64,000 nucleotides of DNA, taken from assembly GCA_943354605.1 (NCBI GenBank), contig CALRCK010000003.1, positions 85,609-149,608 of the forward strand. The letters run 5' to 3'. Position 1 is the first letter of the stretch; each line of letters starts with the position of its first letter. Both the position numbers and the translations under genes were made by a program. The notes under the pieces were generated by a model that was not told the DNA's origin, searched no databases, and worked only from the letters and a program-made list of their open reading frames with translations. Positions 4,439 to 60,584 of the stretch are shown here, piece by piece. Source of the DNA: Candidatus Uhrbacteria bacterium (lineage in GTDB: Bacteria; Patescibacteriota; Patescibacteriia; UBA9934).

Positions 4439-4454
4439 ACAAAAGGCAAACTTC

Positions 4455-4570
4455 CCCATTTGGTCTAGTTTCGATTCACACCATCGCAAACTCGCTCAAC
4501 GTACCATGGAGTACGCCTCGCGAGTTTTGCTCGTCGTTCATCGAAACTAGCCTCAAATGTGAAAGTTCGA
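4455..4570 (-). repeat. Family-2 conserved ~110 bp hairpin element (copy A), sense orientation toward doxX start
   Basis: Shares ...CCATTTGG...GAAACTCGCTCAACGTAC..GTACGCCTCGCGAG...CTCAAATGTG with copies at 5672-5784, 29010-29125 and 38647-38715. It ends about 20 nt upstream of the doxX ATG. Confidence 0.7.
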
Positions 4571-4595
4571 TTAGGAATAATCGTAATCAGTGTAC

Positions 4596-5564: not shown

Positions 5565-5671
5565 AAATGAACCCTTAAATAAATGAGCAGCCCTTTAGGG
5601 GCCGCAGACATGTTCTAAACCGAGAGGTTCAGAGCGAGATTCTCGACAGGACTTACACCGGGATATCGAAC

Positions 5672-5784
5672 GTTCATATTTGAGACCAGTTTCGATGAAG
5701 GTCGAGGAAAGCTCGCGAGGCGTACTTCTCGGTACGTTGAGCGAGTTTCCGATGACCTGAGTCGAAAATGGGCCAAATAGGGAC
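5672..5784 (+). repeat. Family-2 conserved hairpin element (copy C), sense toward GGDEF gene
   Basis: GTTCATATTTGAGACCAGTTTCGATGAAGGTCGAGGAAAGCTCGCGAGGCGTACTTCTCGGTACGTTGAGCGAGTTTCCGATGACCTGAGTCGAAAATGGGCCAAATAGGG. Confidence 0.7.
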
Positions 5785-5967
5785 GTTCGATCGGCGACCT
5801 GTTGTCTGCGGATCTCGAGGACGGTGGAATAGTACAAATCCAAGCTCAAACTGTCAAATCTTTGCGAACATTCGCGATGTTTTATTGACGAAAACCCCAA
5901 ATTTTGCTATACTTTTCCGTTCGGCTGTTCTCAGTTTCTTCCACTGTTCCACACCCAGGTACTCACC

Positions 5968-7272: not shown

Positions 7273-7339
7273 GTCATCCCCGCGTAGGCGGGGATCCATC
7301 TCTCCGAACAGCCTGGATCCCCGCCTACGCGGGGATGAC
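7273..7339. repeat. Perfect 26-bp inverted repeat element (GTCATCCCCGCGTAGGCGGGGATCCA ... TGGATCCCCGCCTACGCGGGGATGAC), pristine member of the GTCAT..ATGAC family
   Basis: Arms at 7273-7298 and 7314-7339 are exact reverse complements. Each arm contains its own CCCCGC-GTAG-GCGGGG sub-hairpin. The termini match family-1 elements. Confidence 0.75.
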
Positions 7340-10956: not shown

Positions 10957-11036
10957 GTCACCCTGAGCGAAGCGAAGGGTCTCTCGTAGGTGAGATTTTC
11001 TCCCTGCGGAGATTCCTCGCCTACGCTCGGAATGAC
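10957..11036. repeat. REP/MITE-like nested palindromic element, family 1, copy 2
   Basis: GTCACCCTGAGCGAAGCGAAGGGTCTCTCGTAGGTGAG...CTCGCCTACGCTCGGAATGAC, between xseA and xseB. Source of the spurious HPERSEGSLVGE...ARND ORF. Confidence 0.75.
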
Positions 11037-14351: not shown

Positions 14352-14407
14352 AGCAAGATCTGAAACTGAACCTTTGAGGGGCTGGAAGGGAACAGACTGT
14401 TTTTTCA

Positions 14408-14503
14408 GTCATGTTGAGCGAAGCGAAACATCTCCACAGGGAGAATCAGTAACCTGCGAGAGATTCTTACCCTCCGGGTATAAGTCACTTCGTTCAGAAT
14501 GAC
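14408..14503. repeat. REP/MITE-like nested palindromic element, family 1, copy 3
   Basis: GTCATGTTGAGCGAAGCGAAACATCTCC ... AAGTCACTTCGTTCAGAATGAC with a palindromic core. Confidence 0.7.
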
Positions 14504-25837: not shown

Positions 25838-25915
25838 GTCATTGCGAGGAGGGTAATCCCGACGCGGCAATCCAGGTTCATCTAGGTTGCTTCGTTGCAC
25901 TCGCAATGACGGATG
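25838..25915. repeat. REP/MITE-like nested palindromic element, family 1b (GTCATTGCGAGG...CTCGCAATGAC), copy 4
   Basis: Arms are reciprocally identical to the element at 45988-46073 in opposite orientation. It supplies a cryptic ATG to the ndh ORF. Confidence 0.75.
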
Positions 25916-28991: not shown

Positions 28992-29009
28992 ATGAATATA
29001 AGCACTTTT

Positions 29010-29125
29010 CCCATTTGGCCTCTTTTCGGCTTGTCGCATCGGAAACTCGCTCAACGTACACATGAAGTACGCCTCGCGAGCTTTCCTCGCTCCGCACCAA
29101 AAATAGTCTCAAATGTGCAAAGTGC
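29010..29125 (-). repeat. Family-2 conserved hairpin element (copy B), sense toward rpsB; ends about 19 nt upstream of the rpsB ATG
   Basis: CCCATTTGGCCTC...GGAAACTCGCTCAACGTACACATGAAGTACGCCTCGCGAGCTTTCCTCGC...CTCAAATGTGC. Confidence 0.7.
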
Positions 29126-32874: not shown

Positions 32875-33789
32875 ATGGACGGCGCCATGACGATTTTCGA
32901 ACTCCTCGCATGGGCCGGCGATGCGCTGAAAGCTGCCGATGCAACGCGCTCTGTGAAACAAAACCCTCGCCTTGATGCGCAGGTGTTATTGTCCTACGTC
33001 CTTGGCGTGAACAGCGCGTACCTTTTTACGCATGGCGATGAAACCGTGAAGTCGCAAGACGCAGAAACGTTTCAGCGCCTTGTTGCGCGCCGAGCTCGAC
33101 ACGAACCCGTCGCGTACCTCACCCAAACCAAAGCATTCTTCGGCCGCGATTTCTTCGTCAATCAACACGTCCTCATTCCACGACCCGACACAGAAATTTT
33201 AGTCGAGGCCGCACTCGGCGTGATCGATTTCCGATCGACCATCGTCGACATCGGCACCGGCAGCGGCGCGATCGCAATTTCGCTCGAACTTGAAACCCAT
33301 CGCCCAACATTCGCTATCGAGATTGATCGCGACACCAAAGCGGTCGCCGAACACAATGCGCGAAATCTCGGCGCGAACATTACCTTCCTTGACGGCTCCC
33401 TCTTCGAGCCGTTCGTAAACCTCGCAATAAACGACCTGACCCCTTTTCAAAATTCTCATCTCGTCATCACCGCCAACCTTCCGTACCTCACGCCGTGGCA
33501 GTGGGAAGCGCTCGATCCCGATGTGAAAAATTACGAGCCAAAACTCGCACTCGTCGGCGGTGCCGATGGCTTGGCGCTATACGACGAACTGTGCAACCAA
33601 ATCCGAACCTACCTTCACGAAGCATCACGCAAAGGCAAGCGTATCGCCGTCGATCTTGTCATCGAAATCGACCCGTCCCAAAAGCTCACCGCCCCCGCTC
33701 TTCTGAAATCCCACTTCCCTTCTGCCGCCATCAAAACCATCCGCGATCTCACACACCGCGAACGCGTCGTTGTCGCGTCGATACGGTAA
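32875..33789 (+). CDS. prmC: Release factor glutamine N5-methyltransferase
   Basis: IVDIGTGSGAIAISLEL (SAM motif I) and TANLPYL (NPPY-type motif). Immediately downstream of prfA. Confidence 0.85.
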   Translation: MDGAMTIFELLAWAGDALKAADATRSVKQNPRLDAQVLLSYVLGVNSAYLFTHGDETVKSQDAETFQRLVARRARHEPVAYLTQTKAFFGRDFFVNQHVLIPRPDTEILVEAALGVIDFRSTIVDIGTGSGAIAISLELETHRPTFAIEIDRDTKAVAEHNARNLGANITFLDGSLFEPFVNLAINDLTPFQNSHLVITANLPYLTPWQWEALDPDVKNYEPKLALVGGADGLALYDELCNQIRTYLHEASRKGKRIAVDLVIEIDPSQKLTAPALLKSHFPSAAIKTIRDLTHRERVVVASIR

Positions 33790-34186: not shown

Positions 34187-34225
34187 GCGCCGACCTGACG
34201 AAGGTCGGCGCTCGTCGTTTATTCT
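34187..34225. terminator. Bidirectional terminator hairpin (GCGCCGACC-tgacgaa-GGTCGGCGC) followed by TCGTTTATT
   Basis: Perfect 9-bp stem. Shares GTCAGGTCG/CGACCTGAC and TCGTTTATT submotifs with the 22-bp repeat flanking the Y1 transposase. Confidence 0.55.
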
Positions 34226-40741: not shown

Positions 40742-40742
40742 A

Positions 40743-40765
40743 AAGGGGTCAGGTCGTTTATTGCC
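40743..40765 (+). repeat. Solo copy of the 22-bp repeat AAAGGGGTCAGGTCGTTTATTGC (same as the inverted repeats flanking the Y1 transposase at 59658/60553)
   Basis: Exact 21/22 match. Sits at the junction between the gyrB stop and the high-GC PNP island. Confidence 0.7.
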
Positions 40766-40772
40766 GAGTTTC

Positions 40773-40806
40773 CAAAACACCAGCCTCATCGCTGGTGTTT
40801 TGTTTG
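40773..40806 (+). terminator. Rho-independent terminator after gyrB
   Basis: AACACCAGCctcatcGCTGGTGTT followed by TTGTTTG. Confidence 0.6.
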
Positions 40807-40844
40807 AATCTTTTGTACGCTTTTCGCGCCACTTTGGAGGGCAA

Positions 40845-41693
40845 TTGCAACCCGAACTCACTCGTCGCGATCGTCTCAACGCCGCCGCCCACGACGCAGC
40901 AACAGAAAACCTCCGTCAGCTCGGCAACATCAACACCGACATCGCCGTCGTGCTGGGTACCGGCTGGGGCAAAACCGTGGAGCTCGCCAAAAGCGTCCCT
41001 CTCTCGTACCTCAATCCGGTCTTCAGCCGCCTGGCCGATCTCCCCAGTCACGCCCGGAAGATCGGGATCGCGACGATTGGCGGCAAGCGCGTGCTCGTCG
41101 TGTCTGGCCGCATCCATCTGTACGAGAACAACCGCGATGCAGTGTACGTCCTCATGCGGATCCTGTGGGAACTAGGCATCCGGAAGCTGATCATCACGTC
41201 GGCGACCGGCGGCATGCGGGACTACATCCGTAAGGGCGACATCGTCGTCATCACAGACCTCATCAAGAACCTCGCCTCTCCGGTGGACGGCCCGCCGTTC
41301 CCCAACCCGCATGTCATGATCCCCACCGAGTTGATGCACCGCATCTTCGCCGATGCGCCCGTCAACCGCGTACACATCGGGCATTGCGTGAGCAACGCTG
41401 GGCCAGACTTCGAGAGTCCCGGCGATCGCTTGCAGATCGACCGGCCTGGCGTGCAGTGCGTTGGCATGAGCGGCAGGCCGGAAGCGACGTGCTTCGCGAG
41501 CTTCGTGGAGCAGAACAACCTTCGAGCAGGCAATCGCGCCATCGTCGTTCCCATCACCTGCATCAGCAATGGGCTCGCCGATCCGCATAGCCACAGCAAC
41601 AACACGGCCGCTATGAACGCGAACGCGGAGCGATTGAGTGTGATGCTCGCGCACACCGTGAAGCTGACCGCGGTGCAGCGTCTCAAGCGCTAG
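40845..41693 (+). CDS. Purine nucleoside phosphorylase / MTA phosphorylase family protein (high-GC island; TTG start proposed)
   Basis: DIAVVLGTGWGKTVELAKSVPLSYLNPVFS...IATIGGKRVLVVSGRIHLYE...ITSATGGMR...HIGHCVSNAGPDFESPGDR shows the PNP-I family blocks. SD GGAGGG lies 3 nt before TTG 40845. All in-frame ATGs lie inside gyrB. GC is about 62%. Confidence 0.55.
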   Translation: MQPELTRRDRLNAAAHDAATENLRQLGNINTDIAVVLGTGWGKTVELAKSVPLSYLNPVFSRLADLPSHARKIGIATIGGKRVLVVSGRIHLYENNRDAVYVLMRILWELGIRKLIITSATGGMRDYIRKGDIVVITDLIKNLASPVDGPPFPNPHVMIPTELMHRIFADAPVNRVHIGHCVSNAGPDFESPGDRLQIDRPGVQCVGMSGRPEATCFASFVEQNNLRAGNRAIVVPITCISNGLADPHSHSNNTAAMNANAERLSVMLAHTVKLTAVQRLKR

Positions 41694-41718
41694 AACGTAC
41701 AACGCGTCACACACGAAC

Positions 41719-41748
41719 GACGGCCCCTCGGGCCGTCGTTTCGCTTTT
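41719..41748 (+). terminator. Rho-independent terminator after PNP gene
   Basis: GACGGCCCctcGGGCCGTC followed by GTTTCGCTTTT. A second hairpin, CCCCGCAAGGGG plus TTTTTT, follows at 41799-41816. Confidence 0.6.
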
Positions 41749-41958
41749 CCACCGACCCCCTTGCTCCCCCGCCAAATTCGGTGTATATTTCCGTCGTTCC
41801 CCGCAAGGGGTTTTTTGATACAATGCGACTAGCTATTTCGTCCACATTCGGCTTGCGGGCCCCTGGCAACGTCGTCAACGTACGATTTTGTACGTCTCCT
41901 CGTCGCCATCCCGCGCACCGAACGTGAACAAAATATCTTCGTCGCAGTCATTCCCCAT

Positions 41959-42162
41959 ATGCAACGCATCCTCAACAATCCAGCAATCAAGTACTTCCGT
42001 GAGGCACGGATGGAGCTGGAAAAGGTTTCTTGGCCAAGCCGCAAAGACACCGTCATGTATTCCACCATCGTCCTCGTCCTCAGCCTGGCAACCGCAGCCT
42101 TCATTGGCGTGCTCGACCTTGGCTTGAGCAAGGGCCTGGAGTTCCTTATTTCCAAAGTCTAA
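41959..42162 (+). CDS. secE: Preprotein translocase subunit SecE
   Basis: 67 aa. KYFREARMELEKVSWPSRKDTVMYSTIVLVLSLATAAFIGVLDLGL has a single C-terminal TM. Confidence 0.8.
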   Translation: MQRILNNPAIKYFREARMELEKVSWPSRKDTVMYSTIVLVLSLATAAFIGVLDLGLSKGLEFLISKV

Positions 42163-45987: not shown

Positions 45988-46073
45988 CGTCAGTCATTGC
46001 GAGGCTGTAATCAGCCGAAGCAATCTAGGCTACCCTGGATTGCCGCGTCGGGATTACCCTCCTCGCAATGACA
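45988..46073. repeat. REP/MITE-like nested palindromic element, family 1b, copy 5
   Basis: GTCATTGCGAGGCTGTAATCAGCCGAAGCAATCTAGG...CCTGGATTGCCGCGTCGGGATTACCCTCCTCGCAATGAC. Confidence 0.75.
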
Positions 46074-46524: not shown

Positions 46525-46537
46525 AATATCTTTTTCG

Positions 46538-46615
46538 TCTTTGCGAGGCTGTCATCGGCCGAAGCAATCTCGGTTCACCTGGATTGCCGCGTCGCGATGA
46601 CGCTCCTCGCAATGA
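46538..46615. repeat. REP/MITE-like nested palindromic element, family 1b, copy 6 (termini slightly degenerate)
   Basis: GTCTTTGCGAGGCTGTCATCGGCCGAAGCAATCTCGG...CCTGGATTGCCGCGTCGCGATGACGCTCCTCGCAATGATG. Confidence 0.7.
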
Positions 46616-50387: not shown

Positions 50388-50520
50388 AAGCCGAACGCTC
50401 CTATTTGGCCCATTTTGGCCTTACGGGACCCCAACAACTCCTCACCGTACGGTGCAGTACGCCTCGTCGTTGTTTTCCCCGTGCGCCCAAACTGGTCACA
50501 AATATGAACGTTCGCATCGT

Positions 50521-59657: not shown

Positions 59658-60574
59658 AAAAGGGTCAGGTCGTTTATTGCTAGATTTCATGAGTTATACT
59701 CGGGAATATGACTCGACCTCTTCGCATCGAATTCCCTGGTGCTTTTTATCACGTCACTTCGCGTGGCAATAAGCGTCAAAATATCTTCACGAATCACGAA
59801 GATCGAAATACATTCGTTAATGTTCTCGCGAGAACCATCAAAACGTACAACTGGAAATGCTATGCATTTTGTTTAATGGATAACCACTACCACATTCTTC
59901 TTCAAACACCAAATGGAGATCTTTCCACGGGCATGCGAGATTTGAACGGAATATACACACAACTCTTCAATAAAAAACACCACACCACTGGACATATCTT
60001 CGAAGGCCGCTATAGAGCCTTCGTCATTGAACAAGGAGAATATTTCTGTGAAGTTTTACGCTATACCGTGCTCAATCCTCTCCGAGCGAACATGGTAAAA
60101 AGGCCAGACGATTGGCCATGGAGCAGCTACAGCGCCACGGCATACGGGAGAAAAATGTACCCATTCGTTGATCAAAAATTCGTATTACGACTCTTTTCCC
60201 GCACTGATGGACTTGCTCGAGAACGATATCGCGCCTTTGTGCAAGATGGAGTCGATAAGCGGTCACCATTTCTGAATGTTCGGCATGGAACACTTCTTGG
60301 ATCGGATCGGTTTGTGATGGAGATCTGGAACCAATATTCAGATACCGAAAAAGAGCCGGAGATAAATCTCGATGAACGAAGGCTTGCAAGACCAACGCTC
60401 AAAGAACTCTTTGAAGACACGAAAACAAAAGAAGAACGAAATATCGTCATCAATCTTGCGCGACTACGATGTGCATATTCGATCACTGATATTGCAAAAC
60501 ATTTGCAACTCAATAGAGCAACTATTAGTAATATATTGCGAAATCAAACCTCGCAATAAACGACCTGACCCCTT
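59658..60574 (+). mobile_element. IS200/RAYT-like element: Y1 (HUH) transposase gene bounded by 22-bp inverted repeats AAAGGGTCAGGTCGTTTATTGC
   Basis: Left repeat at 59658-59680 and its reverse complement at 60553-60574. A third solo copy is at 40743-40765. Confidence 0.65.
59708..60559 (+). CDS. IS200-like / REP-associated tyrosine (Y1, HUH) transposase with C-terminal extra domain
   Basis: FYHVTSRGNKRQNIF...AFCLMDNHYHILLQTPNGDLSTGMRDLNGIYTQ has the HuH motif (HYH) and a downstream catalytic Tyr region. An additional ~130 aa C-terminal domain is present (possible HTH). Confidence 0.75.
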   Translation: MTRPLRIEFPGAFYHVTSRGNKRQNIFTNHEDRNTFVNVLARTIKTYNWKCYAFCLMDNHYHILLQTPNGDLSTGMRDLNGIYTQLFNKKHHTTGHIFEGRYRAFVIEQGEYFCEVLRYTVLNPLRANMVKRPDDWPWSSYSATAYGRKMYPFVDQKFVLRLFSRTDGLARERYRAFVQDGVDKRSPFLNVRHGTLLGSDRFVMEIWNQYSDTEKEPEINLDERRLARPTLKELFEDTKTKEERNIVINLARLRCAYSITDIAKHLQLNRATISNILRNQTSQ

Positions 60575-60584
60575 TAGGGCCTCG

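Follow-up and report, generated by a model that had tools for sequence, protein, structure and literature searches.

The DNA analyzed here is a 64-kb stretch (the window) of a Candidatus Uhrbacteria genome, of which a further 6.5 kb was also read (~70 kb in total). It carries one gene for a 283-residue protein of the Y1/HUH type, enclosed by a pair of long terminal inverted repeats (TIRs), and two solo copies of the same repeat, one behind gyrB and one inside prmC. RAYT-like genes with long flanking TIRs in place of repetitive extragenic palindromes (REPs) were reported by Di Nocera, De Gregorio and Rocco in 2013, and in the available text of that paper the proteins are named TIRYTs and the loci TIRtrons (PMC3733652). 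Judged by its sequence features, our locus is a TIRtron, a new member of this known kind, here in Patescibacteria. The comparison with related loci suggests that its gene is mostly kept in place and that single arms of its repeat have recently been inserted elsewhere.

Features of the locus and of the solo repeats:
59708..60559, plus strand: TIRYT gene, intact open reading frame (ORF) of 283 aa, Y1/HUH core with C-terminal helix-turn-helix (HTH)
59885..59893, plus strand: codons of the HuH motif H60-Y61-H62, with H60 and H62 invariant in 50 homologs
60062..60064, plus strand: Tyr119 codon, predicted catalytic nucleophile, aligned to Y115 of E. coli TnpA_REP and invariant in 50 homologs
60428..60553, plus strand: codons of the C-terminal three-helix HTH (residues ~241-282), from weak Pfam matches and the structure model
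59658..59687, plus strand: left arm TIR-L, AAAAGGGTCAGGTCGTTTATTGCTAGATTT, ending 20 nt before the ATG
60546..60575, minus strand: right arm TIR-R, AAAGGGGTCAGGTCGTTTATTGCGAGGTTT, covering the last four codons and the stop of the TIRYT gene
40742..40771, plus strand: solo TIR after gyrB, between the TAG stop and the gyrB terminator hairpin
40773-40802: gyrB terminator hairpin, downstream of the solo TIR
33417..33446, minus strand: solo TIR inside prmC, in frame in ORF 32875-33789, 30/30 identical to TIR-R
TIRYT protein regions: Y1/HUH core, residues ~6-153; helical middle, 156-213; low-confidence, disordered linker, 214-230; three-helix HTH, 241-282

The TIRYT protein and its inverted repeats

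A first, sequence-only reading of this DNA had taken the gene product for an IS200/RAYT-like Y1/HUH transposase of 283 aa with a HYH motif and an extra C-terminal domain, and database searches and structure prediction bear this out on the RAYT side. The protein matches Pfam Y1_Tnp with E = 7e-14 and scores 90.1 bits against NCBIfam REP_Tyr_transpos, above the cutoff of 80, whereas transpos_IS200 gives 17.5 bits against a cutoff of 55. E. coli TnpA_REP (4er8) is the only solved relative found by sequence (E = 5e-5); the alignment sets the HYH motif (residues 60-62) against its HuH motif and pairs Y119 with its catalytic Y115, the tyrosine match that the earlier reading had wished to see confirmed. 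H60, H62, Y119 and W138 are invariant in 50 homologs, and S139 is nearly so (WSSY). The HuH-to-Tyr spacing of 57 residues falls slightly under the median range of 58-67 given in the available text of PMC6006769. An AlphaFold (AF2) model computed with the 50 homologs as input has a mean confidence (pLDDT) of 84.9, and its best Foldseek match is again 4er8 (E = 7.5e-8, TM 0.75 on the target), with the transposases of ISDra2, IS608 and IS200 ranking behind. The model contains three helices at residues 241-282, and Pfam HTH_23, HTH_28 and HTH_38 match weakly at residues 247-281; the same families are recorded for several homologs. Among Y1/HUH enzymes the TIRYT thus belongs with the RAYTs and not with the IS200 branch.

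The gene has a GC content of 42.7% against 52.8% for the window and occurs once in the ~70 kb. An Rfam search at the locus returned no family match, and a promoter scan upstream of the gene and the left arm found no site with the sigma-70 consensus, which may not apply to Patescibacteria. The identical 283-aa protein is encoded on a 171-kb metagenome contig. Homologs of GyrB and of the TIRYT that carry an organism name belong to Candidatus Uhrbacteria or Patescibacteria.

The repeat unit AAAGGGGTCAGGTCGTTTATTGCGAGGTTT is present four times in the window. Inverted repeats of 22 bp had been proposed around the gene; the repeats are real and conserved in the family, but their length is 30-33 nt, and the 22-mer quoted, AAAGGGTC, is the left-arm variant. 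Over the well-matched 30-nt unit, TIR-L and TIR-R are complementary at 27 of 30 positions, and the extended arms (59658-59690 and 60543-60575) reach 33 nt with 88% complementarity. The 22-mer has four matches with at most 3 mismatches, against 0.00 expected from 100 shuffles, and scanning the window for the 30-mer with up to 10 mismatches or 6 edits returned those four sites alone, with no intermediates. Three of the four copies have the outer end GGGGTCAG; the left arm reads AGGGTCAG. A single arm forms no hairpin on its own (-1.2 kcal/mol, z = -1.3).

The earlier reading counted three copies and described the third as an exact one lying 2 nt after the gyrB stop. That copy is present, yet it starts directly after the TAG and has 1 mismatch to the left-arm 22-mer; it matches the outer 23 nt of TIR-R exactly and differs from the whole arm at 3 positions, or by one insertion and one deletion. 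The fourth copy, in prmC, had been missed. It encodes roughly 10 residues of PrmC/HemK (E = 2e-25 to 2b3t), in a loop just before the NLPY motif. This catalytic motif (33477-33488) is canonically NPPY; the ITANLPYLTPWQW stretch is invariant in three relatives, so NLPY is a lineage trait and not damage. When a genome collection of 596 Gb, from which the source genome is absent, was scanned with a 19-mer of the repeat, the one match lay in an unrelated metagenome-assembled genome of Gammaproteobacteria; it was discounted, as ~4 such matches are expected by chance in 596 Gb.

Arm pairs of this kind recur around related genes. More than 5,600 homologs of ~283 aa were found, and an exhaustive search for TIRYT relatives (E <= 1e-30) gave 2,091 clusters at 50% identity. 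Ten further homologous loci have matching arm pairs, and nine share the core GGGTCAGG. Eight of the loci are from Patescibacteria (L004, L005, L006, L010/L012, L014, L020, L021 and L025), with TIRYTs 44-83% identical and TIR pairs throughout; apart from relatives in Legionella and IMG/VR, they are every homologous locus with readable ends. Their arms measure 20-34 nt (in L006 up to 45 nt if imperfect flanks are counted), lie ~850-900 nt apart and are perfectly complementary in most cases. The left arm ends ~17-23 nt before the ATG in most loci, and the right arm overlaps or abuts the TIRYT stop codon. In L025 two identical 32-nt left arms stand in tandem upstream of the gene (2469-2551), 51 nt from start to start. 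The survey shows TIRtrons to be common in Patescibacteria.

Each arm falls into two parts. The outer ends read GGGGTCAGGTC in all eight loci, all of which fit GGGGTCAG, and the outer 11-12 nt (GGGGTCAGGTC[G]) are constant across the Patescibacteria loci examined. The inner 10-18 nt vary by lineage, yet are complementary between the arms within each locus. In an alignment of seven loci (the window and six relatives), pairing holds in 96.9% of cells, and at 11 of 28 positions both sides have changed; none of 500 shuffles and no slid register comes close. Such covariation in aligned arms fits pairing of one arm with the other in single-stranded DNA, or a continual homogenization of the arms.

Beyond the Patescibacteria, a homolog 41% identical to the TIRYT, on a plasmid of Legionella adelaidensis, has 26-nt TIRs with the core AGGGTCAGG, and on an IMG/VR contig there is a relative, 28% identical, whose 33-nt TIRs differ in sequence. 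A search of IMG/VR for phage carriage returned two distant relatives only, and scanning metagenomes with the single TIRYT protein gave one locus, already in the set.

Probable vertical inheritance of the gene and recent insertions of the repeat

Two related TIRtrons, L004 (TIRYT 79% identical) and L005 (83%), have the same neighbors as the window: a 383/387-aa protein (87-90% identical) and a class-II aminoacyl-tRNA synthetase, with dnaE on the far side. Across the three loci the TIRYT gene has a proportion of nonsynonymous differences (pN) of 0.11-0.13 and of synonymous differences (pS) of ~0.73, similar to the neighboring gene. Synonymous sites are saturated and pN is low; the gene has therefore long been kept in place under selection. 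In a second sub-lineage (L010, L021) it lies between thyX and dut, and in L010 the spacer that separates the 372-aa gene from dnaE is empty; in L025 it lies between mreB and dciA. The differing positions among lineages mean that rare relocation of the whole unit also happens. From this synteny and substitution pattern the TIRYT gene appears to be mostly vertically inherited at a fixed position, under purifying selection, like domesticated RAYTs. Its GC content is 36-45%, ~2-11 points below its own flanks, in the window, L004-L006, L010, L014, L020 and L021, even where the gene is syntenic and old.

The solo copies have a different history. Three sets of relatives have gyrB and prmC without the repeat: L015/L016, whose GyrB is 96% identical to that of the window, and L017/L018 and L019, both at 90%. 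No TIR core occurs in the 13-22 kb around the two genes in these relatives. Both solo copies are recent single-arm insertions because relatives with GyrB of 90-96% identity lack both of them; the comparison for empty sites proposed with the earlier reading thus came out in favor of real insertions. In L019 the terminator comes immediately after the stop of gyrB, whereas in the window the order is stop, 30 nt, terminator. The PrmC loop is longer in the window with the frame kept, by 6 residues relative to L015 (PrmC 84% identical) and by 5 relative to L017 and L019; the excess over E. coli HemK is ~9 residues.

The segment between the arms also changes orientation: in L005 the TIR-bounded TIRtron is inverted relative to the same conserved flanks. 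Taken as comparative sequence data, the evidence for recent mobility of the repeat appears unusually clean.

Further TIR copies or TIR-like sequences occur in the related genomes. At 10891-11395 of L004, two identical right arms in direct orientation bracket a SET-domain gene (41% GC). The second of these arms again overlaps the 3' end of a gene, and ~11 nt beyond each copy are also alike (a[ta][ca]tgtgac[tc]c). The dnaE-side flank of L004 and L005 contains what look like remnants of the outer end of a TIR (ccccttcag). In L020 a direct repeat of at least 63 nt (1-63 and 1543-1605), 95% alike, brackets a RibD_C gene and a 212-aa gene and ends in a TIR-like core, GGAC(C/T)TGACCCTG; it may be a second TIR family of that Uhrbacteria genome.

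Proposed mechanism and alternatives

We interpret the locus, with a probability of roughly 0.8, as a TIRtron whose TIRYT, a RAYT-like HUH endonuclease, is mostly vertically kept and whose repeat unit is still active, presumably in trans. In such a system the metal would be bound by His60 and His62, with Tyr119 as the nucleophile. The TIRYT would recognize the invariant GGGGTCAGGTC core and cleave there, probably helped by its HTH in reading the core. It would act on its own arms and copy single 30-nt arms in trans to new sites. The substrate would be single-stranded DNA in which the inner parts of the two arms may pair; alternatively, the arms may be homogenized. The segment between the arms could flip.

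Several points weigh against this interpretation. Arm covariation would also arise from gene conversion or from a shared co-evolving protein, without pairing. The single inversion in L005 could stem from host homologous recombination between 30-bp repeats. The empty gyrB site aligns cleanly in one relative only, L019, and the counts of TIRs and genes cover 64 kb plus 6.5 kb of this genome. The low GC content, the varied positions and the plasmid occurrence imply that whole-unit movement and horizontal transfer must also happen. The literature that we found on TIRYTs is computational, with no experiment that ties a TIRYT to TIR cleavage or movement.

Three other explanations are less well supported. 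A gene GC content below that of the host in every locus, the varied positions (383-aa gene-dnaE, thyX-dut, mreB-dciA) together with the Legionella plasmid, the empty site between the 372-aa gene and dnaE in L010 and the opposite orientation of the unit in L005 could all belong to an ordinary autonomous insertion sequence of the IS200/IS605 group that moves whole, the solo repeats being leftovers of excised or decayed copies. We consider this unlikely: the protein fails the NCBIfam IS200 model, the ends are true inverted repeats without subterminal hairpins, and their single arms do not fold; the 70 kb contain one copy of the gene; and the position has been kept despite synonymous saturation, under strong purifying selection. 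Each solo copy, moreover, amounts to exactly one 30-nt arm and is not surrounded by any further sequence of the element, and no decayed intermediates occur within 10 mismatches.

The C-terminal HTH, the place of the left arm, which in most loci precedes the start codon by 17-23 nt and would suit an operator, and the resemblance of the core GGTCAGGTC to two tandem half-sites raise the possibility that the protein is a domesticated DNA-binding regulator and the repeats are operators bound by its HTH, without cleavage or movement of DNA. We give this even less credence, since 50 homologs all keep the two HuH histidines and the Tyr, which speaks for preserved catalysis, since the solo copies lie outside promoters (one in coding sequence, one between a stop and a terminator) and since they are recent insertions, so that a copying mechanism is needed.

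Least probable is pairing at the RNA level, in which the 5' leader and 3' end of the mRNA would close the transcript and control its stability or translation, the solo copies being incidental: strong covariation and arms that bracket the ORF closely would suit it, but there is neither an Rfam match nor a promoter-like site ahead of the left arm, the sequence of the outer 11 nt is itself invariant, beyond what mere pairing asks, the unit has been copied as DNA to unrelated sites and the segment inverted as DNA, and the left arm is doubled in tandem in L025 while the right arm occurs twice in L004.

A more speculative proposal, which we would put forward only as a long shot, goes beyond the TIRtron with a trans-active repeat that we prefer. 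The TIR unit could be a recombination site at which the Y1 enzyme inverts DNA and captures or releases small cassettes, integron- or shufflon-like, in the reduced genomes of the candidate phyla radiation (CPR). The leads for it are the SET gene between direct arms in L004, the flip exactly between conserved flanks in L005, the tandem left arms of L025 and the two-gene segment between TIR-like direct repeats in L020. A further lead is the homolog P0111, which is followed by a run of small same-strand accessory genes, one of them with a weak SET match.

Cassettes had also been suggested in the window itself, where the repeat after gyrB was thought to mark the border of a foreign, GC-rich island with a PNP-family gene.

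~40836-41693: PNP gene, 62.6% GC against 52.8% for the window

The gyrB terminator hairpin separates this gene from the solo TIR. In L017/L018 a PNP ortholog, 64% identical and of equally high GC content (63.5%), lies downstream of gyrB with no TIR nearby, and L019 has neither PNP nor TIR after gyrB; a repeat-bounded PNP cassette is rejected on these grounds. The gyrB-secE-nusG interval (window 40772-42030) is variable among close relatives, and the TIR is not tied to the variation. It holds PNP alone in the window; an HTH gene, PNP, a 295-aa gene and an M50 peptidase gene in L017/L018; an unrelated 241-aa gene directly after gyrB in L015, whose contig ends soon after; and nothing in L019. The cassette idea survives as a weak lead from one relative, L004, with its SET-domain gene.

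A hairpin at 34187-34225, which the sequence-only reading had related to the repeat, is no TIR copy, as it does not come within 10 mismatches or 6 edits of the 30-mer. With a strong GC-rich stem and a T-rich tail behind it (-16.3 kcal/mol, z = -4.3), it looks like a terminator.

Other repeats of the window form separate groups. Palindromic repeats of up to ~79 nt at 25838-25894, 45993-46071 and 46537-46615 have the termini GTCATTGCGAGG...CCTCGCAATGAC, are 86-91% alike and are probably what the earlier reading called family 1b. It had seen a likeness between their termini and that of the TIR; the 9-mer ATTGCGAGG is indeed common to these palindromes and the inner end of the TIR of this lineage, with 8 occurrences in the window against 0.67 expected. 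It sits in the inner part of the arm, which varies by lineage, so it is not a feature of the TIR family, and we regard the link as a coincidence or a local peculiarity. Another set of hairpin repeats (597-676, 7273-7339, 10957-10993 and 14405-14444) starts GTCATCC(T/C), and the member at 7273-7339 has a perfect 26-nt stem, GTCATCCCCGCGTAGGCGGGGATCCA / TGGATCCCCGCCTACGCGGGGATGAC. Direct and inverted repeats of ~50-120 nt, 77-83% alike, lie at 4449-4571, 5665-5787, 29007-29120 and 50392-50514, with shorter related pieces near 50.4 kb.

Comparison with known systems

RAYTs and TIRYTs are widespread, and the RAYT of the E. coli REPtron, TnpA_REP, is reportedly treated in Nunvar 2010, Bertels and Rainey 2011 and Ton-Hoang 2012. 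Our locus resembles a REPtron in its closest solved structure and sequence model (4er8), in having a single gene copy in the DNA read, apparently held at a fixed position in relatives under purifying selection, and in a short repeat that flanks the gene in inverted copies and also occurs elsewhere in the genome. In contrast, each REP is a palindromic hairpin that bears a 5' GTAG, and REPs usually occur in very large numbers as REPIN doublets, whereas the TIR unit here does not fold, lacks GTAG, occurs as singletons and is sparse (2 solo copies in ~62 kb). The TIRYT is also ~120 residues longer and has an HTH.

With the TnpA of the IS200/IS605 group (IS608, ISDra2) the protein shares the HUH/Y1 fold and catalytic motifs, and no target-site duplication is visible. 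Elements of that group lack TIRs and carry imperfect subterminal hairpins; they are multicopy, and their proteins measure ~130-150 aa. Here the IS200 model fails, the ends are TIRs and the window has one gene copy.

The prmC copy, a short in-frame repeat in an intact gene, recalls the Rickettsia palindromic elements and intragenic REPs mentioned in the available text of PMC3733652. These are palindromic hairpins of other sequence families, whereas the prmC copy is one arm of a TIRtron.

The closest correspondence is with the TIRtrons themselves. As far as the available text of the 2013 paper goes, GGGGWSAS is a motif common to many published TIRs; some TIRs extend over the 3' end of the gene, and some belong to moderately abundant dispersed families (PMC3733652). 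Quentin et al. 2018 place 20 of 26 TIRYTs in TnpA_Y1 subclass 2.1, a correspondence that the available text calls probable, and that subclass is distinguished by an HTH_23/HTH_28/DnaA_C-like domain at the C terminus and, behind the Tyr, by a serine motif (PMC6006769). Our locus has a RAYT-like Y1 HUH core, a C-terminal HTH, a serine motif after the Tyr, long non-hairpin TIRs that start with GGGGWSAS (here GGGGTCAG), a right TIR over the 3' end of the gene and a modest family of solo TIRs elsewhere in the genome; its placement in subclass 2.1 is by features only. The host is different: Patescibacteria, or CPR, are not mentioned in the available text of PMC3733652 and PMC6006769.

The locus provides a clean natural experiment: the genome is small and the repeat family sparse, two insertions of single units are fresh, with empty sites in close relatives, and a sister lineage has the inverted allele. 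Together these define the mobile unit as one 30-nt arm and divide that arm into a core of 11 invariant nt and an inner stretch that covaries, which offers concrete substrates for biochemistry. To the TIRtrons it adds empty-site evidence, an in-frame intragenic copy, arm covariation and inversion of the unit, none of which we found in the available text of PMC3733652 or PMC6006769.

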